Positions 860 to 12,594 of a stretch of DNA of 12,594 nt are shown one piece after another. This DNA is from Candidatus Iainarchaeum sp. (GTDB lineage: Archaea; Iainarchaeota; Iainarchaeia; Iainarchaeales; DTGL01), in the NCBI GenBank assembly GCA_038736825.1, contig JAVYME010000033.1, positions 1 through 12,594 on the forward strand, written 5' to 3'. Every line of letters begins with the position of its first letter. Within the stretch, counting starts at the first letter, position 1. The notes beneath the pieces are model-generated. The model was given only the letters and a program-made list of their open reading frames with translations. It did not search any database and was not told the DNA's origin. Position numbers and translations under genes: made by a program.

Positions 860-2353
860 TCACTTTGCCCTGAACTTAAAAAAATAAAGAACAAACAAGA
901 CAATGGAAACCACTATTGCGCTCAAAAAAAACACTTGACTGGAATTAAAGTAATAGGCTGCTGCAATAAAAAGGATTGAACAAACTGCAATAACTGCAAT
1001 CATTTTTTTCAGGTTTTTTCTGTCCGCCTTGAAAGTGCAAGCAATCAATGCAAAACCAAGGATTGCACTTAAAGCCATCCACGGCGAAATATCCGCTTGG
1101 CTTGAAGCCCTACTCCTGCTTGCAATAACACTATCAGAAAGCAAAAAAGAGCCTGTCTGGCCCAGCAGAACTGTCTTTCTTGAAGTCTGCCTTTCGCCGG
1201 TTGTGTCAGTGTAATCGATTTCTACAAAAATCGGCTGAACTTGAAGAGAATTACTGTCAAACTGTCTTTGACGGAAAAAATTAGTGTCAGTAGCACTTGC
1301 GGTTCTCGGAAAAGCCCCTCTTTGAGTTTGAGCGTTTTGGGCGAATGGCGGTTCATTGGTTGAAACAGGCGCTTGCTCGCTGCCAGATGCATTTGCTTGG
1401 GTTCTGGTTTGGACTGTAAAGCTTGCCACTGTGAAATCCCCCTTGTTCAAGTTTCCAAGAATTGAAATGTTGCTACCGGAAACCGTGATTCCGTTTTGTC
1501 TGGGAATTCTCGCAATTACCGCTTGAGCGTTATTAGAGCCTATGTTTGCAATGCTGAGTGAAAGCTGTCCTGAAACCAGTTCTGCACTGACTTCAAAATC
1601 AGTTCCCCCGCCAACAATAAGCCCAACCTGCGAATTCTGTGTACGAACACCATTAACATCAAGAAAAGTCATTGTCAGGTTTAAGGGATAAATGCCGGTT
1701 GTAATGTTTGGATCGGCTGCCACAGTATAGGAAATTTTGACAGTTTCTCCTGCCTCAATTGCAGAAACATACTTTTTGTTGTCAGAACCAACTGGCAAAA
1801 TCAAATTGTTTGGCTCAGTCCAAGAGAAAGAAACATTGGAAACCCTGGCTTGCCCGACATTTTTAAGAGAAAAAACAAGCTCGGTCTGGTTTCCAGGATT
1901 TATTTTTTTAGGTTCAGCTGTTACATCAATGTTTTTTTCAATTTTTGCAACAGGAACAGAAAAACTGTTTGTTTGCTCCACAAGGCTGCCGAGATTGTAA
2001 TAATAAATTGTAAGAAATGCTGGATAATAGCCTGGCAAAGTGTCATCCTTTACTTTAAAGCGAAAAATAAGGGTTTTAGTCTGTCCTGGCAGTATTTCCC
2101 TCACACTAACCTTGCTTTGAACATCCTCAAAGTGAACCCCGAGGTCTAAAAAAGCATTCAAGTCAACAACTGAAACGCTTAAACCACGATTCTTTATATC
2201 AACCTTTAAGCTTGCAATATCACCCGCATAAATTGTTCCCGGCAGAAAACTTGTGCCAGTTATTTCAACCAGATATGCATAATCCGCTCCCCTTGCCTGT
2301 GGAAGCAAAACCACAAGCGCTAAAACCGAAAACAAAACAAACAACTTATTCAT
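860..2353 (-). CDS. Large surface protein with repeated CARDB/COG1361-like beta-sandwich domains, a Q/N/S/T-rich linker and three C-terminal TM helices
   Basis: ORF 860..2398. Preferred start is ATG 2353..2351 (MNKLFVLFSVLALVVLLPQARG, a signal peptide), preceded by GGAGG (2365..2361) with a 7-nt spacer. Three copies of the NxGxxxA-type strand motif (SLKVDIKNRGLSVSVV, LVFSLKNVGQARVSNV, LSLSIANIGSNNAQAV). Six N-x-S/T sequons in the ectodomain. Hydrophobic C-terminus (ISPWMALSAILGFALIACTF, MIAVIAVCSILFIAAAYYF, VFFLSAIVVSIVLFVLYFF). Confidence 0.75.
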   Translation of the reverse strand: MNKLFVLFSVLALVVLLPQARGADYAYLVEITGTSFLPGTIYAGDIASLKVDIKNRGLSVSVVDLNAFLDLGVHFEDVQSKVSVREILPGQTKTLIFRFKVKDDTLPGYYPAFLTIYYYNLGSLVEQTNSFSVPVAKIEKNIDVTAEPKKINPGNQTELVFSLKNVGQARVSNVSFSWTEPNNLILPVGSDNKKYVSAIEAGETVKISYTVAADPNITTGIYPLNLTMTFLDVNGVRTQNSQVGLIVGGGTDFEVSAELVSGQLSLSIANIGSNNAQAVIARIPRQNGITVSGSNISILGNLNKGDFTVASFTVQTRTQANASGSEQAPVSTNEPPFAQNAQTQRGAFPRTASATDTNFFRQRQFDSNSLQVQPIFVEIDYTDTTGERQTSRKTVLLGQTGSFLLSDSVIASRSRASSQADISPWMALSAILGFALIACTFKADRKNLKKMIAVIAVCSILFIAAAYYFNSSQVFFLSAIVVSIVLFVLYFFKFRAK

Positions 2354-2741
2354 TATAAAACCTCCTTTCCCTGTTGAAATCTTTTCCAAATTTTTCAAAA
2401 AAAGTCATTCTTAATTCCTCCATTGAAGCGGTTTCAGGAAGACCAAGGGCTTGCTTGACTTCAAGCACTGTTGCTTCCTGAGGCAAACCCATTGCTTGCC
2501 GCACTCTTTGCATGAAAAGGTTTTCATCCATCCTTCTGGGCGGGCGTCCATTGAAATCAGCATTATTCCAATCAGGTGGCAAACCATTGAAATCCCTGCC
2601 TCCCCTGCGCGGGGCAAAATTGCCCGGATTGCTTTCAGCAGGCTTTTGGGTTTGACTTGCACCAGAAGACATTTCAGCACAACCAGCAAACAAAATGAAT
2701 GAAAGGAAAAACAAAAAAGAAAACAAAAAACCGCACCTCAT
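2346..2741 (-). CDS. Small secreted lipoprotein (about 131 aa) with internal duplications, function unknown
   Basis: ORF 2346..2756. Preferred start is ATG 2741..2739 ([21 protein letters not shown], signal peptide with lipobox LFAGC). This ATG overlaps the TGA (2740..2738) of the ATPase gene as ATGA and follows GGAGG (2754..2750) by 8 nt. The track's upstream ATG at 2756 overlaps that SD. Its stop TAA 2348..2346 overlaps the next gene's start region. Confidence 0.6.
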   Translation of the reverse strand: MRCGFLFSFLFFLSFILFAGCAEMSSGASQTQKPAESNPGNFAPRRGGRDFNGLPPDWNNADFNGRPPRRMDENLFMQRVRQAMGLPQEATVLEVKQALGLPETASMEELRMTFFEKFGKDFNRERRFYNE

Positions 2742-3436
2742 TTTTTGCGCCTCCAAAAATCTGACTTAATCAGTCCATCACTCAATTCAACTTGCCTTTC
2801 AGCATAAGCCGCAATATCGTGCTCGTGAGTGACAAGGATAACCGTCTTGCCCTGCTCCTTGTTCAGCTTGCAAATCAAACCCAATATTTCATGGCTTGTT
2901 TTTGTGTCAAGGTTGCCAGTGGGCTCGTCTGCCAAAATTATTTGGGGATCCGTTGAAAGCGCTCTCGCAATTGCAACCTTTTGCCTCTCTCCGCCTGAAA
3001 GTTGGGCTGGCAGGTGAGCAAGCCTTTTTGAAAGCCCTACAAGCCCAGCAAGCTCTTTTGTTCTAATTTCAATAATTTCCTTTTCAAATTCATGAATCCT
3101 CATTGGCAGGGCAATGTTTTCAAAAACATTTAGTGTTGGGTAAAGGTTGAACGTCTGGAAGACAAAGCCTATTTTTTTGCCTCTTATCCTTGCAAGCTTT
3201 GACTCTGAAAGGCGTGAAATCTCGGTTTTCTCCAAAAAAACCTCCCCCTTTGTTGGAACATCAAGCGCCCCCATCATATTAAGCACAGTTGACTTGCCAC
3301 TGCCAGATGCACCAACCACTGCCAGAAAATCACCCTCTTCAACCTCAAGATTTATTCCACGCAGGGCAGTAACCTCTACATCATCCATCTGGTAAACCTT
3401 CCAAACATCCCTTAATTCAAGAACTTTTTTACCCAA
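2738..3436 (-). CDS. ABC transporter ATP-binding protein, MacB/LolD-like (COG1136 type)
   Basis: Walker [11 protein letters not shown]-loop FVFQTFNL, signature LSGGERQ, Walker [10 protein letters not shown]-loop VTHEHD. The ORF is open to ATG 3469, but GGAGG (3448..3444) plus a 7-nt spacer points to TTG 3436..3434 ([15 protein letters not shown]) as the start. The start is uncertain by 33 nt. Confidence 0.9.
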
Positions 3437-3459
3437 TTTAAAACCTCCAAAGAAAAAAA

Positions 3460-3565
3460 TGAAACACATTTAATACTTTGCAACCATTAATAGGTTTAAT
3501 TGTAACAACCTGAAACAAATAATATGGCATTGTGAAACGTGATGAAACATGAAACGACTTGAAAC
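3460..3565. promoter_or_regulatory. Divergent promoter/operator region carrying six exact TGAAAC repeats
   Basis: TGAAAC at 3460, 3511, 3533, 3543, 3550 and 3560, all in one orientation, plus the variant TGTAAC at 3501. AAATAATAT (about 3517-3525) lies ~27 nt upstream of ATG 3549, suggesting a leaderless regulator mRNA. On the minus strand, CTATTAAT (about 3488-3495) is a possible TATA for the ABC operon. Confidence 0.45.
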
Positions 3566-4136
3566 CTTTTTCAATTCCGACAAAAAATATGCAGTGATAA
3601 TGATTCTCTGCTTTATTTACGGCGGATACGCAATCCTTTCATTTTTGCTTCAAGCTTACACCGCCTTTTGGAGAATTGAACTCTTGGGTTTTCCCATGCA
3701 AGGACAGGGAAGCCCGAGAACTGAAGACTTCAACCGTTTCCGGCAACCGGATTCGAACAGGCTTTCAAACCAAAGATTTATCACACAAGAACCGCTTGCA
3801 CAAATAGTTTCCCCTCTCTCACTTTCCTGGCTTTTAAGCGGCATAATCTCTCTTTTGGCTGGACTTTCAATCTGGCACCTCGTAAGAAAAAAAGAAATAA
3901 AAAAAATAAAGCAAGAAACAGCGAACAACCTCCTGCTTCCAGATGAAAGAAAAATAATTGAAACACTCAAAAAATCAAACTTTGAAATGCTGCAGTCAAG
4001 GATTGCCAAAGAAACCGGCTTGAGCAAGGTTCAAGTCCACCGTGCAATTAAAAGGCTTGAAGCCAAAGGAATACTTGAAAAACACACATACGGGCTTTCC
4101 AACAAAATAATGCTGAAAAGAGAGTTTTTTGATTGA
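3549..4136 (+). CDS. Membrane-anchored winged-helix transcriptional regulator (two TM helices, extracytoplasmic loop, C-terminal MarR/TrmB-like wHTH)
   Basis: TM1 YAVIMILCFIYGGYAILSFLLQAY and TM2 LSLSWLLSGIISLLAGLSIWHLV, then a K-rich linker. The wHTH reads LLPDERKIIETLKKSNFEMLQSRIAKETGLSKVQVHRAIKRLEAKGILEKHTYGLSNKIML. ATG 3549 is the first start after an in-frame TGA (3543-3545). This is the only clear plus-strand gene. Confidence 0.7.
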   Translation: MKRLETFFNSDKKYAVIMILCFIYGGYAILSFLLQAYTAFWRIELLGFPMQGQGSPRTEDFNRFRQPDSNRLSNQRFITQEPLAQIVSPLSLSWLLSGIISLLAGLSIWHLVRKKEIKKIKQETANNLLLPDERKIIETLKKSNFEMLQSRIAKETGLSKVQVHRAIKRLEAKGILEKHTYGLSNKIMLKREFFD

Positions 4137-4697: not shown

Positions 4698-5288
4698 CTA
4701 CAAGAAGAAGTATGGTGGAATAGATGCCAAAAGAAACAAAAGGATTGGAAGGGCAGAGGCGCCCAACACACGGAAAAGTATGGGTGAACCCAAAAAAGAA
4801 ATAACCACTGGGGCTGTCTTTTTCAGGGGACCATCCAAATAATAGAATGCCCCCCTGGAATAGCTGAAGGCGGGACCGAAAATTATCAGAATTAAAAAAA
4901 GAAAAAATATAGTAAAAAGCCAAAAAGGCGGAAAAAACAGGACGATCCAGTTTTGAAAAGACCAGCCAGTTACCTCAAAAAAAGAAAAAACCCAGTATAA
5001 AGAGAAAAGACCGAAAAAAATCAAGTAAAAATAGGCATAAACCCCATAGAACCGATGGTATCTTTTTTTTATCTTTCTGACTTTTTGCATGAAGGCTGCT
5101 TGCTTTGAATATTGCTTTTTTCCCATGTGTTCTGGCATAGAAAGCCATAGCGCCTCAATATCTTCTTCTTTGAGATTTGTGTGGGCTGCTTGAACTCCTC
5201 GTATTCCTTTTTGTAGGCTTCCTTGGAAGCCCAAGTTTGCTTTCCAGGGGAATTGCCAAACGGGCAGTAGGCCATAAAAAAACCACAA
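4698..5288 (-). CDS. Polytopic membrane protein of unknown function (start uncertain; ends at an in-frame TAG)
   Basis: Charged N-terminal region (NLKEEDIEALWLSMPEHMGKKQYSKQAAFMQKVRKIKKRYHRF) followed by at least four hydrophobic helices. The track start TTG 5288 has no SD; alternatives are ATG 5138 and ATG 5126. Lies 40 nt downstream of the radical SAM gene on the same strand. Confidence 0.55.
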   Translation of the reverse strand: MWFFYGLLPVWQFPWKANLGFQGSLQKGIRGVQAAHTNLKEEDIEALWLSMPEHMGKKQYSKQAAFMQKVRKIKKRYHRFYGVYAYFYLIFFGLFSLYWVFSFFEVTGWSFQNWIVLFFPPFWLFTIFFLFLILIIFGPAFSYSRGAFYYLDGPLKKTAPVVISFLGSPILFRVLGASALPILLFLLASIPPYFFL

Positions 5289-5328
5289 ATTAGTTGTGTG
5301 AACTGGTTAATATTGGTTTCCTTTCAGG

Positions 5329-6498
5329 TCAAGGTATTATTTCTGGACCGCAAAATTTTGTGTGTTCAAAATCATTGAGGGAGATTCTTTTTTTCTCTAT
5401 GAGTTCTTTTATTTCTGGAAGAACTTCCAAGAGCATTTTTCTGAATTCTTTCACGGATTTGCAGACAAGGTTCCTGCCTTTTTCCGGCCATGGTTTCACA
5501 ATATTTGAGTAAAGGCATCTGCCACCGCAAAACTTGTATATGGTGCAGGAAGGGCATTTTCCGGATACAAAAACTTTTTTTAGTTTTAGGGGGTGTGCTG
5601 TTGCAATGTGTCCTAAATAGAAGTCTTTCATTCCAGCCATTATGGGGCAAGGGGCAATGAAGCCGTTTGTCATGATGCTGTAATTGGCATAGCCTGAACC
5701 GCACCTTAAAAGGCTTTTTTTGCCAAGCAAAAGGTCTTCGGTTGTGTCAAGGAATGGGTAAAAGCGCAATACTTTGCCTTCTTTTTTCATTTTTGAAATC
5801 CAGAATTTCAATAGCCGTTTTGTGTTCGGCAAATAGTTTTCTTCAAGCCATTTCTTGAAATTTTTTCTTTGCTTGAAATCGTTCCAGAAATTGGCGTCAA
5901 TCTGCCAGTGCACTGAAGTGAATGGAAATTCCTTGTTGGATGCAAGGTGTTTTACAGCCGAATAAATATTTGTGTGTTCTGTTATTGTCATTCTTGCAAT
6001 CAATTCTCCCTTGAAGCCATTCCTTTTGATTTTTTTAAGGTTCTCCATTACCTTGTCATAGGTTCCCTTTCCTCGATTATAGTCGGTTAGGGTTCGATTG
6101 CCGTCAAGCGATACAAGTATAGCGCTGAAGCGGTTAACGTATTGTGGCTCAAGCTTGTTTAAAAGCAAGCCGTTTGTCTGCATCATGAACTGTTTTGGAT
6201 TGCATTCTTGCATTATTTTTCTTATCAAGTCCAAGCGAATGGTTGGCTCTCCGCCATAAAAGGTTAGAGTGCTATCTGGGTCTTTTGAAATGAAGTTGTA
6301 AAGTAGGTGAAGGTCATAGGATAGTTCTGCTGGCAGGCTTTCATCCAAGGCGAATTTTTCCATTCTGGGACTGCAAGAGAAGGCTTTTCCACTGCAATAA
6401 TTGCATTGCAGGTTGCAGTTGTTTGAAAGCAGGACATGAAAGTGCAAAGCTTGCCACCAAGTATGCCTAAACCATATTTGCAATGAAAAATAATGCAT
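5329..6498 (-). CDS. Radical SAM enzyme with a complete C-terminal SPASM domain (putative peptide/protein-modifying maturase)
   Basis: CNLQCNYC (C28, C32, C35), GGEPT, and the SPASM pattern C266-x12-G-x4-C284, C315-x2-C318-x5-C324-x3-C328, then C346. From memory it resembles the archaeal AF0577-type putative peptide-modifying rSAM family; this was not verified by search. Confidence 0.85.
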   Translation of the reverse strand: MHYFSLQIWFRHTWWQALHFHVLLSNNCNLQCNYCSGKAFSCSPRMEKFALDESLPAELSYDLHLLYNFISKDPDSTLTFYGGEPTIRLDLIRKIMQECNPKQFMMQTNGLLLNKLEPQYVNRFSAILVSLDGNRTLTDYNRGKGTYDKVMENLKKIKRNGFKGELIARMTITEHTNIYSAVKHLASNKEFPFTSVHWQIDANFWNDFKQRKNFKKWLEENYLPNTKRLLKFWISKMKKEGKVLRFYPFLDTTEDLLLGKKSLLRCGSGYANYSIMTNGFIAPCPIMAGMKDFYLGHIATAHPLKLKKVFVSGKCPSCTIYKFCGGRCLYSNIVKPWPEKGRNLVCKSVKEFRKMLLEVLPEIKELIEKKRISLNDFEHTKFCGPEIIP

Positions 6499-6531: not shown

Positions 6532-7446
6532 TTATTTTTTTCTTTTAAGTTCGGCGATAACTTTTTCCGCTATTTGAATGCCGCAACGGTTTTGTGCTTC
6601 CACTGTTGATGCTCCCAGGTGGGGTGTGTGCACAACATTGTCCAGCCCAATCAAATCCCAGTTTTCCGGTGGCTCTTTTTCGAAAACATCTATTGCTGCG
6701 CCTGCAACCTTTCCGCTTTTTAGGGCATCAAGCAATGCTTTTTCGTCTATTATTCCACCGCGTGCCACGTTTATTACGCGAACTCCTGGCTTCATTTTTT
6801 CAAAAGCCTGTGCATTCAACAATTTAGTGGTTTCAGGGGTTTTTGGCACGTGTACTGTAATGAAGTCGGATTCTTTGAGCAAAGTTTCAAGGTTAACCTT
6901 TTTTGCGCCAACCTTTTTGTAAACCGCTGGTTTTGCATATGGGTCAAAGGCAATTATTTTCATTTCAAAGGCTTTCATTCTTTTTGCAACCTCTTGCCCT
7001 ATTTTGCCCAAACCAATTATGCCCAGAGTTTTTCCGAAAACCTCTGTTCCCTTGAACTTGTCTCTCTCCCACTTCCTTTCAATCAGTGACTGGTGGGCTT
7101 TTGGAATGTTTCTGCATAATGCCAGCATTACTGCAATTGTGTGCTCTGCAGCGCTTATCGTGTTTCCTTCCGGCGAATTAAGAACCTTTATTTTTTTGGC
7201 TTCTGCTGCCTTTACATCAATGTTGTCCAAGCCGGCTCCAGCCCTTCCTATGACTTTCAAGTTGGAGGCGTTTATTATTTCTGCTGTCACTTGAGTGCCG
7301 CTTCTGACTATGAGGGCATCATATTCTTTGATTTTTGCAGCAAGCGCTGTGCCTTTTGATTCAAAGTCTTCTGTGACTTCAAAACCTGCTTTTTTCAGTT
7401 TTTCAACGCCTTCTTTTGCAAGCTTGTCTGTAATTATGACTTTCAC
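6532..7446 (-). CDS. serA: D-3-phosphoglycerate dehydrogenase, short form without an ACT domain (D-isomer 2-hydroxyacid dehydrogenase family)
   Basis: NAD-binding GIIGLGKIGQEVAKRM and catalytic region NVARGGIIDEKAL...DVFEKEP...TPHLGAST, about 304 aa. Preferred start is GTG 7446..7444 (MKVIITDKL), overlapping the upstream TGA (7445..7443) as GTGA, with GGGGG (7458..7454) 7 nt upstream. Substrate specificity is inferred from the family and the neighbouring aminotransferase. Confidence 0.75.
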   Translation of the reverse strand: MKVIITDKLAKEGVEKLKKAGFEVTEDFESKGTALAAKIKEYDALIVRSGTQVTAEIINASNLKVIGRAGAGLDNIDVKAAEAKKIKVLNSPEGNTISAAEHTIAVMLALCRNIPKAHQSLIERKWERDKFKGTEVFGKTLGIIGLGKIGQEVAKRMKAFEMKIIAFDPYAKPAVYKKVGAKKVNLETLLKESDFITVHVPKTPETTKLLNAQAFEKMKPGVRVINVARGGIIDEKALLDALKSGKVAGAAIDVFEKEPPENWDLIGLDNVVHTPHLGASTVEAQNRCGIQIAEKVIAELKRKK

Positions 7447-8540
7447 TTGCACACCCCCTTTGCCATTAAATCATCTATTGCGCTTGTCAGTTCTTTCAAG
7501 TCTTTCAGGTTGAGGTCTCCCATGTGGGCTATGCGGAAGGTTTTTTGCTTGAATGGCCCATAGCCATCGCTTATGTGCATTTTTTTCTTGGCTAAAGCAT
7601 TATTGAGTTTTTCAACGTTTACGAGATTGGCGTTGTTGTCCACTGCTGTCAAGGTTATGGAGCGATAGCCTTCTTCTGCAAACAAGCCAAAGCCTTTTTT
7701 CAAAGCCCACTTGCGCGTGAATTCAGCCATGTCTGAGTGCCTCTTGAATCTTTTTTCAAGGCCTTCCTTCATGAAGGCGTCAAGCTGGGCGTTCAATGCA
7801 AAAATGTGTGATATTGATGGCGTGGATGGAGTCTGGTTTTTTTCAGCGTATTTTTGGAAGGTGCCAAGGTCAAAGTAATAGCCCCTGTTTGGGATTCTCT
7901 TGTGTTTTTCCATTGCTTTTTCGCTTACAGCGAAAACTGTTAGTCCTGGCGGCAAACCAAAGGCTTTTTGGACTCCTGCAAAGAGCAAGTCTATGCCAAG
8001 CCTGTCCATTTCAATTTTTACGCCGCTGAGTGAAGAGACAGCGTCAACCATAAAGGTAACATTTGGAAAGTCTTTCATTACCTTGGCAATGCTTTCCATT
8101 TCAACCATTACGCCTGTGCTGGTTTCATTGTGCACTAGTGTGAGGGCGTCAAATTGTCCTGTTTCAAGTTTTGCTCTTATTTGGTCTGCTTTGACTGCTT
8201 TTCCTGGTTCGACTGAAATGATTTCTGTTTCTTTTCCGCACAATTTCACTACTTCAGCCCATTTGCTGCTGAATTCGCCCATTACACAGCAAAGCGCTTT
8301 TTTTTCCACAAGGTTTCTTGCTCCAAGCTCCCATATTCCAGTGGAAGAACTAGTGCTCAAAAAAACATGCTGGTTTGTGTAAAGCAATTGCTTTAGTTTT
8401 GGAATGGTGTCAGCGTACAAGTCCATGAATTCTTGGCTTCTGTGCCCTATCATGTAATGCGACATTGCTTTCAATATTGGTGCTTTCACTTCCACTGGCC
8501 CGGGAATAAACAATTTTTTGTATTTCATTTTCACAGCCAT
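7443..8540 (-). CDS. Class V (AGXT-type) PLP aminotransferase, likely an archaeal-type phosphoserine aminotransferase
   Basis: FIPGPVEV near the N-terminus, HNETSTGV, VDAVSSLSG, and the PLP-lysine motif GVQKAFGLPPGL. Preferred start is ATG 8540..8538 (MAVKMKYKKL), 9 nt after GGAGG (8554..8550). Confidence 0.8.
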   Translation of the reverse strand: MAVKMKYKKLFIPGPVEVKAPILKAMSHYMIGHRSQEFMDLYADTIPKLKQLLYTNQHVFLSTSSSTGIWELGARNLVEKKALCCVMGEFSSKWAEVVKLCGKETEIISVEPGKAVKADQIRAKLETGQFDALTLVHNETSTGVMVEMESIAKVMKDFPNVTFMVDAVSSLSGVKIEMDRLGIDLLFAGVQKAFGLPPGLTVFAVSEKAMEKHKRIPNRGYYFDLGTFQKYAEKNQTPSTPSISHIFALNAQLDAFMKEGLEKRFKRHSDMAEFTRKWALKKGFGLFAEEGYRSITLTAVDNNANLVNVEKLNNALAKKKMHISDGYGPFKQKTFRIAHMGDLNLKDLKELTSAIDDLMAKGVCK

Positions 8541-8561
8541 TCTATTCAACCTCCAAATATT

Positions 8562-9824
8562 TCATTCTATTTTTCTGTAAAAAAGCCCGCTTAGAATTTT
8601 GGGGTAAAAATAAGTGCTTTTTTGCGGCATTCTTTGCCCGGCAAGACAGCTGGCAACCACTTGTTCTTTCTTTGTTGCATTCATCAAGAAAGCAATATCG
8701 TATTTGCCGGAGTCTGCTTTTTTTAATGCTTCCCCGAAATCCTTTACATACTCTATGTGTTCTTTTCTTGCAACTTGTTCTGCGGAAATTCCAAGAATTC
8801 CTTCTATCACTATTTTGTGCAATATTGAAACGTCCAGTTCTCTTATTTCTTTTACAATTCCTGGCATGAGCGCAGAAAGGTCAACATTTTTTTTCAAGGA
8901 GAAGAGAAGGGTTTTTCCCTTGCTTCTTGCAATAAAGGCTTTTTCTTTTTTTAAAGCAAGCTTTTTTTCAAGCTGTTTTGCATTTCCCCTTATTTCCTTT
9001 ACATTGAACCATTTTGCCAGTTCTTCTTTAAATTTTTTGAAATCAAATTCTTTCAAGCCAAACAAGAGCCTGTGAGTGGGCAAAACTATCAAGCCGGGGT
9101 CTTTCATTTCAACCAAGAGAATTGGCATTGAATCCGCTTGCGGATTTTCTTCAAAATATTTTAAATGGGTTTCATAGCGGTGGTGGCCGTCTGCAATGAA
9201 GAGTTTTTTGTCTTTCATTGTTTCTGCAATAATGCTTATTTCTTTTTCATCGGTTATCGCCCAAAGCCTGTTTTTGATTCCATTGTCGTCTTTTACTTCA
9301 AAAAGGGGTTTTTTCTTGCAGGTTTTTTCAAGTATTTTTTTGATTTTTCCAGATTTGTCACTGTAAAGGGCGAAAATGCATTCAGTGTTTGCTTTTGTGG
9401 CTCTCAATAGTTCAAGCCTGTCTGCTTTTGGACCGCTTAGGGTGAATTCGTGTGGCAAAATGTTGCCTTGCTCGAAAGGCTCAAGTTTTACAAGCGGAAT
9501 AAAGCCTTTCCGGCGGTATTTTTTTCCTTTAAGGGTGTAAATTTGCTCGTAAGCGTAAATTGCAGGGCTTTCCTCTCTGAAAAGAATGCCTTTTTCTTCC
9601 CAGTTTTTCAGGTTTTCAGCTGCTTTTGCGTAAAGATTGAATTGCTTGTTTTCCTCTATTTCTTCGCCTAGTGTGACATGAATGCAGTTATAGGGGGATC
9701 TTTTGCGCAATTCCTCTCTGTATTCGCGCGAAATTACATCGTATGGCGGCGCTACAAGGTTTTCCGGCTTGCCTGCCTTTTTGAAATCATACCTTAGCGC
9801 TTGAAAAGCCTTGATTTGAACCAA
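8562..9824 (-). CDS. DUF1015 (COG4198) family protein, function unknown
   Basis: Family hallmarks recognised from memory: N-terminal IKAFQALRY, APPYDVIS, LPHEFTLSGPKADRLELLRATKAN, IADGHHRYETHLKY, LPTHRLL. Preferred start is TTG 9824..9822 (VQIKAFQALRY), 8 nt after GGGGG (9837..9833). Confidence 0.75.
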   Translation of the reverse strand: MVQIKAFQALRYDFKKAGKPENLVAPPYDVISREYREELRKRSPYNCIHVTLGEEIEENKQFNLYAKAAENLKNWEEKGILFREESPAIYAYEQIYTLKGKKYRRKGFIPLVKLEPFEQGNILPHEFTLSGPKADRLELLRATKANTECIFALYSDKSGKIKKILEKTCKKKPLFEVKDDNGIKNRLWAITDEKEISIIAETMKDKKLFIADGHHRYETHLKYFEENPQADSMPILLVEMKDPGLIVLPTHRLLFGLKEFDFKKFKEELAKWFNVKEIRGNAKQLEKKLALKKEKAFIARSKGKTLLFSLKKNVDLSALMPGIVKEIRELDVSILHKIVIEGILGISAEQVARKEHIEYVKDFGEALKKADSGKYDIAFLMNATKKEQVVASCLAGQRMPQKSTYFYPKILSGLFYRKIE

Positions 9825-9839
9825 AAAAAACGCCCCCAA

Positions 9840-9938
9840 AACCGCTAGCGCTACGCGCCAGAATTATTTTAAACCAATAAACCTTTAAAAGCCAATACAT
9901 TTTAAGGAAAAGGCTTTCTAAAACTGAAAGGAAAGGGC
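9840..9938 (-). promoter_or_regulatory. Intergenic region: likely terminator of the 7-TM gene and promoter of the DUF1015-aminotransferase-serA string
   Basis: The minus strand carries CTTTTAAAGG and TTTAAAATA (about 9873..9865). The latter sits ~26 nt upstream of about 9843, which would give a short leader containing the GGGGG SD. T-tracts follow the TAA at 9941..9939. An 8-bp palindrome CGCTAGCG lies at 9843-9850. Confidence 0.35.
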
Positions 9939-10700
9939 TTATTTTCTTTTTTCAGTTTTGCCAAAGCCTAGCTCCACTTTGAACTCTAAAACTGTTTTTT
10001 TGAATACATAAGTGCTGATTGAGGCAATCACAAATGCTAAAAACAAAAAGATTGTGCTGGCAAAGTCAAAAGTGTTGAGCAGCATGAAACTGGCGTAATG
10101 CGTTGCCACTGCATAACTGTTGAGTATTTGCCCTGTGAGAAGCAACAGGCTTGCAGTTATCAGGAAAACCGGCATTGGATAAATGGAATTGAATTCTTTT
10201 GTGTAAGAGCCAACAATCCAAAAAGAGAAAGCCAAAAACAAGTAGGCTAGAGAGCAAAGCAGGATTGTTGCAAAAGCAACAAAGCTTGTGGTGTTCAAAA
10301 GCAATATTGTATCAGAAGCAAGGAACACCAGGAAAGCAAAAACCATTGTTTTGGGCATCATCATTTTAACCTTCAAGTTCCTTTTAAAAGAATAAGAGGA
10401 CATTAAAAGGAAAACAGAGGACATTACAAGAAAACCGCTTGAAATCAGTTCTTCTATTCCGCTGAGCGGTTTTCCCAAAAAATAATAGGACTGGATTTCA
10501 GCTATGGGGCTTATTAGCAAAAGAGGAAGGCTGACATACACTAAAAGCCAGTCGGTTTTCTTTTTAGTGAAGGCTTCCACTCTCTTGAGTGCATCAATCA
10601 AAAAATAAAAAGCAAACCAGCAAATCAGGCTTCCAGAAAAATAAAAAAGAATCCTTAGCTGGATTATTCCATAAGGATCAAAAGCGTTCATTTTCACCAT
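9939..10700 (-). CDS. Seven-TM integral membrane protein without a soluble domain, unknown function
   Basis: 253 aa with seven hydrophobic segments by eye, approximately residues 12-35, 51-69, 86-104, 118-135, 139-163, 176-193 and 205-233. Starts at ATG 10700, 28 nt after the upstream TAA. Confidence 0.65.
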   Translation of the reverse strand: MVKMNAFDPYGIIQLRILFYFSGSLICWFAFYFLIDALKRVEAFTKKKTDWLLVYVSLPLLLISPIAEIQSYYFLGKPLSGIEELISSGFLVMSSVFLLMSSYSFKRNLKVKMMMPKTMVFAFLVFLASDTILLLNTTSFVAFATILLCSLAYLFLAFSFWIVGSYTKEFNSIYPMPVFLITASLLLLTGQILNSYAVATHYASFMLLNTFDFASTIFLFLAFVIASISTYVFKKTVLEFKVELGFGKTEKRK

Positions 10701-10728
10701 CTTTGCTTCAAATATACGCTGTTTTAAC

Positions 10729-11334
10729 TTATATTCTTTTCCCTGTGCCTTTCTCCACTGCCTCCTGTTTTAGCTCTTCAAGGTTTATTACCTTGTCAAC
10801 AAATTGGCACATTTGGTTTATGAGGTGCTCTTCTGTTTCCTTTTCAAGGGAAATAAAAATCCCTTTAAGGCGGAGAGTGCGCATTTTTCCAATAAGGAAG
10901 TGCGCAAATTTTGTCACAGTGCCTGCTTGATTGTAAACCAGCAAAGTGCTTATAGAGTCAAAGAACAAAAACTTGTTCTCTCCCTTTAAAGCATCTATTG
11001 CCTTGTTCAAAGAAATGCTTATTTCTGTCAAACCATGCGGTGAAGCAATAAATGAAACATTTGCCCTTTCACTGGTTTTCGCTCCAGTTGTTGCAGAAAT
11101 AGTGTCAATGAAATAAAATTTTTTTGGGTCAATGCCGTTTTTTTCAAATAAGGCGACAAGGTTTTCATAAGGCCTGTTGAGTGTCACATAAACGCACTCG
11201 TTTGATTTTTTTTTCACTAAATAGGAAAGTATTTCAAGGTTGACTTTAAGGTAGTCTGTGGCTTTTACCACGATTAGCACTATTTGGTCTTCTTCAAGAG
11301 AACCTAATTCTTTCAAAAGCCTGCTTTCAGCCAT
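10729..11334 (-). CDS. Degenerate (Walker A-less) KaiC/RecA-fold paralog, predicted non-catalytic
   Basis: Co-linear with the upstream KaiC-like protein: ECVYVTLNRP vs GCYISLEES, KFLFFDSISTLLVYN vs RLVIDSISLISLYF, KGIFISLEK vs GCTTIALSE. VKATDYLKV replaces the P-loop and NR replaces the catalytic EE. Start is ATG 11334 (AGGT 8 nt upstream) or TTG 11343. Confidence 0.7.
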   Translation of the reverse strand: MAESRLLKELGSLEEDQIVLIVVKATDYLKVNLEILSYLVKKKSNECVYVTLNRPYENLVALFEKNGIDPKKFYFIDTISATTGAKTSERANVSFIASPHGLTEISISLNKAIDALKGENKFLFFDSISTLLVYNQAGTVTKFAHFLIGKMRTLRLKGIFISLEKETEEHLINQMCQFVDKVINLEELKQEAVEKGTGKRI

Positions 11335-11344
11335 TTTTTTCAAC

Positions 11345-12190
11345 CTAAAACTTGGTGAAAAGCTCTTCTGTTGGGTAAACCACTATGCCTCTGCCTGCCT
11401 CTATCTGGAACGGGTGAACCTTGAGGGAATGATTTGTTGCACGCATTTTTATCACTGAAATTCCCCTATGGAAAACATTTTCTTTTTTTATCATGTAAAG
11501 CACGATTAAGCCGTCAGCAACAAATTCTTCCACTCCAAACCTGCTGAACTTGCCTTCTTGGGCTGGAACCTCTGAAAGAGCAATTGTAGTGCAACCCATG
11601 TTTTTAATGGATTTTTCCAAGTCAAAGATTGCCCTGCGAACCTTGAACTGGTCTTGAAAATAAAGGCTTATAAGAGAAATAGAGTCAATTACAAGCCTTT
11701 CAGCGTTAACTTTGGCGACAGCATCCTCTATTGTCATCAAGAGCTCGTCAAAATCATACAATTCCGGCTTTCTGAGAACAAGATCGCCTTCAGCTATCAT
11801 TTTATTGATGTCCCAGTTGAAAATGCGCATTTGCCTTATTGTTTCCTCTATGGATTCCTCTAGTGAAATATAACAGCCACGTTGCCCCATTTCTAAGCCC
11901 TTGACAAGGAAATTCATTGCAAAAGTGCTTTTTCCGGTTCCAGTTGAACCGCTTAAAAGCACAAGAGAATCCTTTGGAATGCCTCCTTCCACCAATTCGT
12001 CAAAGCCCTCTATGCCAGTGGGCATGCGGTTTATGAAAAGCGGTGCCTCTGCACTAGCCTTTGCTGGTTCTATCACAATCTCTTTCTTTGAAGTCACGGT
12101 TTGCTTTGCTTTTTTTCCAGTTCCCAAGTAAGGAAGATCCACTTCTTCCAGTTTTGGCTCTTCACTTGCATCATCTTCGTCGGCTACCAT
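11345..12190 (-). CDS. Single-domain KaiC-like (RadA/RecA superfamily, COG0467-type) ATPase with a charged N-terminal extension
   Basis: MPTGIEGFDELVEGGIP, Walker A GSTGTGKST, SLEES, Walker B RLVIDSIS. Preferred start is ATG 12190 (GGAAGTGG 5 nt upstream); the track start is TTG 12205. Stop is TAG 11347..11345. Confidence 0.85.
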   Translation of the reverse strand: MVADEDDASEEPKLEEVDLPYLGTGKKAKQTVTSKKEIVIEPAKASAEAPLFINRMPTGIEGFDELVEGGIPKDSLVLLSGSTGTGKSTFAMNFLVKGLEMGQRGCYISLEESIEETIRQMRIFNWDINKMIAEGDLVLRKPELYDFDELLMTIEDAVAKVNAERLVIDSISLISLYFQDQFKVRRAIFDLEKSIKNMGCTTIALSEVPAQEGKFSRFGVEEFVADGLIVLYMIKKENVFHRGISVIKMRATNHSLKVHPFQIEAGRGIVVYPTEELFTKF

Positions 12191-12206
12191 TAAAACCACT
12201 TCCAAG

Positions 12207-12594
12207 TCACTTCCATAAAGGCTTTTTATGCTTTCTGCCTTGCTCTTCCCTCCATGCTTGATAGGAATAAATCACTGGCACAATTGAAAAAACCAACACT
12301 CCAGCAATCAATGCAATAAAAGCCATAGAGGATTGCACAAATGCTAAAATGAAAATAAAAACAGCCATCAAGGCAAAACAATAAGAGCCAATCTTGTGGG
12401 TTTTTTCCCAAACAAAGTCAGAGCTCATAGTCCAAGGCGTGCGAATTCCAACAAACCAGTTTCTCTTGGATTTTCGCAAAAGCAACGCTATGTAAAAGAA
12501 AAGAACAGATAGGGCTGGCAAAAGCATTAATTTTATCTCTATTTGCATTCCCAGCCCTGCCAGGATAGTGAGAGCGTGCAAATAAAGAAGAAAA
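12207..12594 (-). CDS. SdpI/YhfL-family membrane protein, probably 5'-truncated by the window edge
   Basis: Family signature RNWFVGIRTPWTMSSDFVWEKTHK followed by two TM helices. The reading frame stays open upstream of the track's TTG 12581 to the window end. TGA at 12209..12207. Confidence 0.65.
   Translation of the reverse strand, partial: FLLYLHALTILAGLGMQIEIKLMLLPALSVLFFYIALLLRKSKRNWFVGIRTPWTMSSDFVWEKTHKIGSYCFALMAVFIFILAFVQSSMAFIALIAGVLVFSIVPVIYSYQAWREEQGRKHKKPLWK

Follow-up and report, generated by a model that had tools for sequence, protein, structure and literature searches.

A candidate membrane-anchored KaiC-type regulatory module with an inactivated KaiC-fold protein in a Diapherotrites archaeon

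Introduction

Does a run of closely spaced archaeal genes for two membrane proteins, a KaiC-like ATPase and a degenerate KaiC-like protein make up one regulatory module, and which of the genes belong to its core? The question is raised by contig JAVYME010000033.1, the whole of which (12,594 bp, hereafter the window) was analysed, and which belongs to a metagenome-assembled genome (MAG) labelled 'Candidatus Diapherotrites archaeon', from the DPANN group of very small archaea of symbiotic type. Four minus-strand genes at one end of it, here called g1 to g4 in their order of reading, encode an SdpI-family membrane protein, a single-domain KaiC-like ATPase, a protein of the KaiC fold without its catalytic motifs (an inactivated KaiC, or iKaiC) and a 7-helix membrane protein. 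With moderate confidence we read the locus as a membrane-anchored KaiC-type regulatory module, in which g4 is the membrane protein, g3 a dead-KaiC adaptor and g2 the active KaiC-like ATPase. Gene content, protein folds, loss of catalytic motifs and conserved linkage carry this reading.

Makarova, Galperin and Koonin are said to have described archaeal KaiC-like ATPases in 2017 as a 'signal transduction hub'. PMC5847659, citing Makarova et al. (2017), lists DUF835 and MEDS among inactivated KaiC domains that act as signalling modules. KaiC-family ATPases are also regulators associated with type IV pili (T4P) in archaea (PMC4858521). To the extent covered by these sources, archaeal KaiC-like hubs and inactivated KaiC signalling domains are an established theme. 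An earlier interpretation of the locus, the original prediction, had proposed a tight four-gene operon in which the architecture of DUF835 proteins was split into separate genes and combined with an active KaiC and an SdpI-type protein. In the present study we describe the sequence and structure relationships of the four proteins and a survey of gene context in 80 fetched g3 loci (L numbers below), for which we used our own open reading frame (ORF) calls and annotation by phmmer and hmmsearch.

Results

Gene content and junctions

The ORF list and the reverse-strand sequence contain all four packed minus-strand genes as predicted, g1 at 12207..>12594, g2 at 11345..12205, g3 at 10729..11343 and g4 at 9939..10700. 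The junctions likewise agree with the original prediction. The TGA of g1 (12209-12207) is followed by a TTG at 12205 or an ATG at 12190 for g2, the TAG of g2 (11347-11345) by a TTG at 11343 or an ATG at 11334 for g3, and the TAA of g3 (10731-10729) by the ATG of g4 at 10700. The peptides that had been quoted, NWFVGIRTPWTMSSDFVWEKTHK, GSTGTGKST, SLEES, RLVIDSIS, DQIVLIVV, ECVYVTLNRP and KFLFFDSISTLLVYN, all occur in the translations. The database copy of g3 has 201 amino acids (aa), which fits ATG 11334, and that of g4 has 250 aa, which fits ATG 10691; an exact look-up of the TTG-start form of g3 gave no match, since the annotation begins the gene at the later ATG. A gap of 28-37 nucleotides (nt) separates the g3 and g4 genes.

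Between g4 and a DUF1015 gene lies a spacer (9840..9938, minus strand). Inspection of its sequence revealed a T-rich stretch directly past the g4 stop and A/T-rich TATA-like boxes, TTTAAAGGTTTATT and TTTAAAATAA, upstream of the DUF1015 start, and it is probably the end of a transcription unit comprising g2, g3 and g4, with or without g1. The genes 3' of the spacer form a serine-pathway-like cluster unrelated to the KaiC module. Rfam gave no RNA family in the window. The PADLOC matches in the window are generic P-loop matches to g2 only, so they provide no evidence of a defence system.

An active KaiC-like ATPase and an inactivated relative

The original prediction of g2 as an intact KaiC-type ATPase was well founded. 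The gene (11345..12205, minus strand) encodes 286 aa from TTG 12205, with ATG 12190 as the alternative start, and its product matches PF06745 with E 1.3e-64 and 218 bits (cut-off 26.6) over profile positions 2-230 of 231. Its PDB matches are KaiC CI (1.3e-72), PH0186 (9e-50) and PH0284 (6e-39), and SSO2452 as well. Walker A (GSTGTGKST), the catalytic pair in SLEES and Walker B (RLVIDSIS) are intact, and the K..R motif IKMRATNH aligns with LKFRGTSH in the Lys/Arg-finger region of KaiC, a motif that presumably holds the residue serving KaiC as Arg finger. From these intact motifs g2 is predicted to be an active single-domain KaiC-like ATPase, and it is probably an autokinase as well. Like the archaeal KaiC hub proteins PH0186, PH0284 and SSO2452, it has the full KaiC-type RecA fold and motifs. 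As the hub model proposes, it is encoded beside putative input and adaptor parts. It is not a circadian-clock KaiC, being single-domain instead of CI-CII, scoring 181.6 bits versus 408 and 132.7 versus 546, and having no KaiA or KaiB gene in the window. It misses the cut-off of every curated KaiC subfamily of NCBIfam (equivalogs, ArlH and clock KaiC included). It also differs from the hub proteins in its disordered charged N-terminal tail of variable length. In the window this tail spans ~55 aa (12040-12205) and is acidic and lysine-rich, of low-complexity Glu/Lys composition. Orthologues range from 285 to 402 aa (402 in L002, 377 in L083, 308 in L081, 285 in L085) and differ mainly in tail length, with tails of ~55 to ~180 aa among close relatives.

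g3 (10729..11343, minus strand; 204 aa from TTG 11343 or 201 aa from ATG 11334) belongs to the KaiC fold by both profile and structure, as had been proposed. Its Pfam matches are to DUF7504 (PF24336; 40.5 bits, cut-off 27, E 5e-10), to KaiC (35 bits, E 1.2e-8, covering only profile positions 41-192 of 231) and to DUF7090 (E 6e-6); both DUF7504 and KaiC are matched by all 32 aligned g3 relatives. An AlphaFold2 (AF2) model built on 32 relatives has a predicted local distance difference test score (pLDDT) of 91. Its best Foldseek neighbour is PH0284 (TM-score 0.67), followed by KaiC, PH0321, PH0186 and RecA, with probability 1.0 for KaiC and PH0186, and these neighbours confirm the KaiC/RecA fold. 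The g3 profile matches the FlaH structure 4yds weakly (E 0.14).

The catalytic apparatus is gone from this fold, again as the original prediction had it. Walker A is present in none of 86 family members, versus 64 of 66 adjacent KaiC-like genes. In the family alignment the P-loop is replaced by a short 'KATDY'-type turn after strand 1 and the C-terminal hairpin/Arg-finger segment is missing. The position of L-E-E-S in g2 is taken by N-R-P-Y, and a Walker-B-like FFDSISTLL (FFDSLSTLL in the family alignment) is kept, with D129 invariant. Y31, R55, D80, S130 and H148 are conserved as well. g3 thus belongs to the iKaiC class, with a KaiC/RecA fold whose nucleotide-binding and catalytic motifs are lost, as in DUF835, MEDS, DUF7504 and DUF7090. 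It is predicted to be unable to bind ATP through a P-loop or to donate an Arg finger.

Linkage of g3 to a membrane protein and KaiC-like ATPases

The g3 family is large. An indexed search gave 83 clusters at 90% identity, the g3 profile finds 3,856 representatives (50% identity) at E <= 1e-3 and 878 at E <= 1e-30, and at least 266 GTDB species genomes carry a member. The MAGs concerned are labelled Woese-, Nano-, Micr-, Iain-, Aenigm-, Alti- and Undinarchaeota, Methanosarcinales/ANME-2/Methanoperedens, and Methanocellales; one locus (L048) bears the bacterial label Anaerolineales.

In 63 of the 80 loci a member of a single family of small transmembrane (small-TM) proteins is encoded directly 3' of g3 on the same strand, and two more have a protein of the g4 type there. 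The small-TM proteins have 3-5 transmembrane (TM) segments, 105-210 aa, the motifs SLSKGSSLR and C-terminal GKEFGF, and no Pfam match. The gap between g3 and its partner has a median of 1 nt, with a 4-bp overlap in ~19 of 67 pairs, and the whole cassette of g3 and small-TM gene is duplicated in L003, L031 and L043. KaiC-like genes are linked to g3 as well: one lies within 3 kb in 43 of the 80 loci, and 71 of 73 KaiC-like matches fall within 2 kb, a more than 40-fold concentration (0.38 per kb in the first kb, 0.10 in the second and no more than 0.009 farther out). The tie of g3 to a membrane protein and to KaiC-like ATPases, claimed originally for one locus, therefore extends across archaea in these 63 and 43 loci. 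The core is g3 plus its membrane partner with a KaiC ATPase alongside, not a four-gene operon.

The KaiC component varies. Most commonly, in ~21 of the 80 loci, it takes the form of two ~235-aa KaiC-like genes arranged as a divergent tandem pair. Such pairs lie upstream of g3 on the opposite strand (L007, L009, L016, L021, L023, L030, L041 and others) and consist of two distinct genes, both with Walker A; they look like a 'split CI/CII' beside the cassette of iKaiC and small-TM protein. A close g2-type KaiC (E < 1e-50) is found in 8 loci, for example in Aenigmatarchaeota.

Several further arrangements were seen. In L004-L006, L008, L010 and L012, from MAGs labelled Diapherotrites, Micrarchaeota, Iainarchaeum or unclassified archaea, g3 is followed by two tandem ~105-aa small-TM paralogues (hhalign probability between them 94.7%) and preceded by genes for a HAD hydrolase and a ~140-aa protein, with no KaiC gene within 6 kb. 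Two MAGs, one containing L010 and L069 and the other L012 and L072, each hold g3 paralogues in two differing contexts. The first context has two small-TM genes and no KaiC; in the second, a g2-type KaiC accompanies a g3 whose N-terminus is extended by a Lys-rich stretch, together with an adjacent Tad operon and a second, weak g3-like gene on the opposite strand.

Genes of Tad-type pili (secretion ATPase, TadC-like) adjoin many g3 loci of Woese- and Nanoarchaeota, though not the window, and 21 of the 80 loci have T2SSF (TadB/C-like) genes no more than 3 kb away from g3, an enrichment near g3. In the Tad operons beside the iKaiC cassette at L023 (6991-9891), L041 (4606-7978) and L069 (3-4277), a VirB11/TadA-like secretion ATPase is followed by two T2SSF genes. 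In the secretion ATPase of L069 (791 aa) the two ATPase halves are apparently separated by an intein-like insertion that carries LAGLIDADG/HNH-like motifs.

Gene order in close relatives

Close relatives divide the proposed four-gene operon into a stable and an unstable part. The trio g2-g3-g4 is kept in relatives within Iainarchaeia/Diapherotrites, and the SdpI gene is not conserved with it. The full order g1-g2-g3-g4-DUF1015 recurs only in L002, where g3 is 52% identical, and in part in L001, where the contig ends. In L081/82 the order is Ham1, SdpI, KaiC, g3, g4 and DUF1015. In L083/84 it is Ham1, rubrerythrin, desulfoferrodoxin, KaiC, g3, g4 and DUF1015, and in L085 a Na/H exchanger and a Na/Ca exchanger on the opposite strand, then KaiC, g3, g4 and glycosyltransferases. 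Because the trio outlasts the change of both flanks (L083, L085), the conserved unit is g2-g3-g4. The DUF1015 gene opens a serine-pathway-like cluster in the window (6532-9839, minus strand), with a class-V aminotransferase and a D-2-hydroxyacid (phosphoglycerate-type) dehydrogenase. The cluster is syntenic with the module in L002, L081 and L083, and glycosyltransferases take its place in L085.

Relation to DUF835

Two further parts of the original prediction were not supported. The first was the link of g3 to DUF835 (PF05763), whose cut-off is 33.1 bits and for which g3 scores 14.2 (E 0.038). The best DUF835 match among the 32 relatives has E 1.1e-4, and half of them give weak DUF835 matches. 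A tandem g3 relative, P0172, passes the DUF835 threshold, which indicates that the two families are close. Profile scores thus place g3 in DUF7504, as a relative of DUF835 and not a member. The second was the idea of a DUF835 architecture split into separate genes, which is an analogy: homology of the membrane parts was not borne out, and no TM-iKaiC fusion was found among the top 150 g3 profile relatives or among 28 small-TM relatives. The DUF835 architecture, which we take to be a multi-TM N-terminus and an iKaiC domain in one polypeptide, is not that of g3 and g4. Unlike DUF835, g3 stands alone (~185 aa), and the membrane part is a separate, translationally coupled gene. An apparent 534-aa fusion in L019 was rejected as an ORF-calling artefact, in which a transposase-like frame runs into a normal g3.

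Rare fusions of other kinds do occur, namely of a KaiB-like region and V4R with g3, of g3 with WD40, and of g3 with g3 in tandem, and they support a regulatory, protein-interaction role of the g3 domain. The first kind is represented by P0109 (456 aa), in which an iKaiC domain of the g3 type at the C-terminus is joined to a KaiB-like region of thioredoxin fold (PF07689, E 4e-5, below cut-off) and to V4R, a domain that binds small molecules (E 2e-9); it is a rare fusion linking the g3 family to KaiB-style signalling.

The membrane proteins g4 and g1

g4 (9939..10700, minus strand) encodes 253 aa from ATG 10700 or 250 aa from ATG 10691. It had been described as a bare 7-TM protein, and AF2 indeed gives seven helices (pLDDT 79.5; predicted TM-score, pTM, 0.81). 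It has no Pfam, NCBIfam or PADLOC match. A Foldseek search of the PDB returned generic 7-TM bundles at non-significant levels (best E 0.046, TM-score ~0.4, root-mean-square deviation above 8 Å). A microbial rhodopsin or GPCR-type 7TM protein was considered; because no PDB fold match is significant and helix 7, TFDFASTIFLFLAFVIASIST, has no Lys, g4 is not a rhodopsin. Lys and Arg residues, as read from the sequence, cluster in every second loop and in the C-terminal tail, about 18 inside versus 2 outside, from which an N-out/C-in topology is predicted. Conservation peaks in the cytoplasmic loops and C-terminal tail (FTKKKTDW, SYTKEF, STYVFKKTVLEF).

The g4 family is restricted to one lineage: its 11 clusters, with identity down to 48%, are all on contigs with close g3 relatives. 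g4 occupies the position that is held by the small-TM partner in other lineages. We compared g4, at full length and as halves, with the whole small-TM family and with its closest two-paralogue subgroup. hmmsearch found no match and hhalign gave weak ones, with probability 10-18% and P ~1e-3, in the C-terminal half or the last helices and tail. An origin of g4 by fusion of two tandem small-TM paralogues is unsupported, as neither method gave convincing homology.

The contig end cuts g1 (12207..12594, minus strand) and leaves the C-terminal 128 aa of a membrane protein of the SdpI/YfhL family. The SdpI signature noted earlier corresponds to a match to PF13630 with E 1.2e-18 and 67.4 bits (cut-off 28.2). 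Since orthologues in L002 and L081 have 211-222 aa and the architecture DUF1648+SdpI, g1 is a truncated piece whose N-terminal part was lost at the contig end. An SdpI gene occurs in the window, in L002 and in L081/82, is missing from L083/84 and L085, which retain g2-g3-g4, and is found in just one of the 80 wider g3 loci. g1 is therefore a facultative upstream neighbour outside the conserved core. With SdpI of Bacillus subtilis, an immunity and signal-transduction protein, it shares the SdpI Pfam family and, in its orthologues, the DUF1648+SdpI architecture. Unlike in the B. subtilis system, no adjacent SdpR-like or SdpC-like gene accompanies it, and its link to KaiC is lineage-specific and present at some loci only. 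Neither the genes of the window nor the loci of the relatives encode an SdpR-type repressor or an SdpC-type toxin, the window stopping within g1 and excluding its upstream side.

Other genes in the window

The only sizeable plus-strand gene with a family match (3549-4136) encodes a protein of 195 aa that begins with hydrophobic segments and ends in a winged helix (DUF7343/MarR-like), and that looks like a membrane-anchored transcription regulator. On the minus strand at 4698-6498, a gene for a radical-SAM enzyme (389 aa), whose C-terminal region, CPSCTIYKFCGGRC, is rich in Cys, precedes one for a multi-TM protein of 196 aa that has no annotation, and the two products may be a peptide- or cofactor-maturation pair. 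Further minus-strand genes at 860-3469 encode an ABC-transporter ATPase (243 aa), a secreted-looking 136-aa protein and a surface protein of 512 aa that has CARDB/NEW3 domains and a TM region at its C-terminus. The 136-aa and 512-aa ORFs as called overlap by ~50 nt, so one of their starts is probably mis-assigned.

Discussion

In the module that we propose, g3 would be made in a fixed ratio with its membrane partner and would dock onto the cytoplasmic loops and tail of g4. Through KaiC-like oligomerisation surfaces it could then recruit or cap the g2 ring. It would either join the g2 oligomer as a subunit and disable the sites next to it, or form a ring that stacks on or caps that oligomer, much as CI and CII form two tiers in KaiC. 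The ATPase or phosphorylation cycle of g2 would thereby be tethered to the membrane and modulated by whatever the membrane protein senses, and the SdpI-family protein g1 may be an optional extra membrane component in some lineages.

Several points weigh against this proposal. The physical contacts between g2 and g3 and between g3 and g4 are inferred, and so are the output and the direction in which signals run. Within the window we could identify no sensor domain, no ligand site and no output gene. There is no KaiC-like gene within 3 kb in 37 of the 80 g3 loci, so the pair of iKaiC and membrane protein can occur apart from a KaiC gene, or work with one encoded elsewhere. Homology between g4 and the small-TM proteins is not demonstrable (hhalign 10-18%), and the family-wide linkage extends to g4 by position and by conservation in one clade, with g3 identity down to 52%. 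Finally, the cassette of a stand-alone iKaiC and a small membrane protein appears undescribed in the literature searched and may already be catalogued in the Makarova 2017 survey.

Among four other explanations, none of which fits as well, the one that survives best is that the module is dedicated to a type IV pilus, Tad-like or archaellum-like machine, which it would assist or regulate, with g2 and g3 acting like ArlH on a secretion ATPase and the membrane protein at the TadC platform. The resemblance is real in part: ArlH (FlaH) is also a single-domain KaiC-like protein, and it works at a membrane machine, ArlI/ArlJ. ArlH retains Walker A, which g3 does not. Enrichment of T2SSF genes near g3 (21 of 80 loci), VirB11/TadA-type secretion ATPases directly 5' of them in L023, L041 and L069, and the link that has been published between T4P loci and archaeal KaiC-family ATPases, with ArlH as a KaiC-like archaellum component (PMC4858521), all favour such a role. 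The pilus operons, however, are mostly convergent neighbours of g3 and lie outside its operon, and neither the 12.6-kb window nor the neighbourhoods within 8 kb in L081-L085 contain T2SSE, T2SSF or pilin genes. g2 itself is not ArlH, with 70.1 bits against the cut-off of 215 and with no ArlI, ArlJ or archaellin gene in the window. We regard this explanation as unlikely for the locus.

It is more doubtful still that the membrane protein is a transporter or channel with g2 and g3 as cytoplasmic subunits that energise or gate it. In favour, an ATPase is closely co-encoded with a polytopic membrane protein, and ion transporters and P-type ATPases adjoin the module in some relatives; these neighbours are not conserved, however, g4 has no transporter fold or sequence similarity, and the widespread partner is small (105-170 aa, 3-5 TM). 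To our knowledge, no KaiC-like ATPase energises transport.

A similarly poor candidate is a RadA-paralogue pair for recombination or repair, of the aRadC/SSO2452 or Rad55-Rad57 type with an active and a degenerate subunit, in which case the membrane genes would be unrelated. Both g2 and g3 are in the RecA superfamily, SSO2452 and RecA/RadA are among their sequence and fold matches, and JGI calls relatives 'KaiC/GvpD/RAD55 family RecA-like ATPase'. Profile scores for g2 nevertheless point to KaiC (PF06745 1e-64 versus Rad51 0.06 and RecA 0.018), g3 is paired with a membrane protein in ~80% of loci with overlapping stop and start codons, and no DNA-binding or repair genes recur in the neighbourhoods.

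Least probable of all is inherited synteny of four unrelated genes in a small genome: gene packing is dense throughout the contig and the DUF1015/aminotransferase/dehydrogenase cluster is likewise syntenic in several relatives, yet the trio outlasts replacement of both flanks in L085 and L083, and the linkages of g3 to membrane protein and to KaiC recur over DPANN phyla and over MAGs labelled Methanosarcinales, ANME-2 and Methanocellales with distance-dependent enrichment, so that this explanation looks refuted for g2-g3-g4 and viable for g1 only.

A membrane-anchored KaiC-type module thus remains our preferred reading of the locus. For the wider family, pilus control is one probable output, because Tad-type operons often adjoin the iKaiC cassette. 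A broader proposal is put forward tentatively, as a possibility that we rate below an even chance. In it, a DUF7504-type iKaiC and its small membrane partner would be a widespread archaeal membrane-to-KaiC relay, in which the dead subunit docks on the cytoplasmic loops of the membrane protein and gates one or two active KaiC-like ATPases. In DPANN archaea the relay would control Tad-type pili that serve host contact, and in the window its 4-TM partner would have been replaced by, or expanded into, a 7-TM protein, with an SdpI-type protein added. The breadth of the cassette, the closeness with which one or two KaiC-like genes are linked to it and its 7-TM (+SdpI) variant also appear undescribed in the searched literature.

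The analysis corrects the family assignment of g3, which is to DUF7504 and not DUF835. KaiC-like ATPases have been proposed as the main native signalling hubs of archaea, with very few inputs known, and the locus would represent a compact input side. A dead KaiC subunit co-translated with a membrane protein beside KaiC ATPases is a defined pair, found across DPANN and in MAGs labelled as methanogens or ANME. If the contacts hold, it offers a concrete model of how membrane signals reach a KaiC ring. In Woese- and Nanoarchaeota the pair would also be a candidate regulator of the pili that host-dependent cells may use for attachment.

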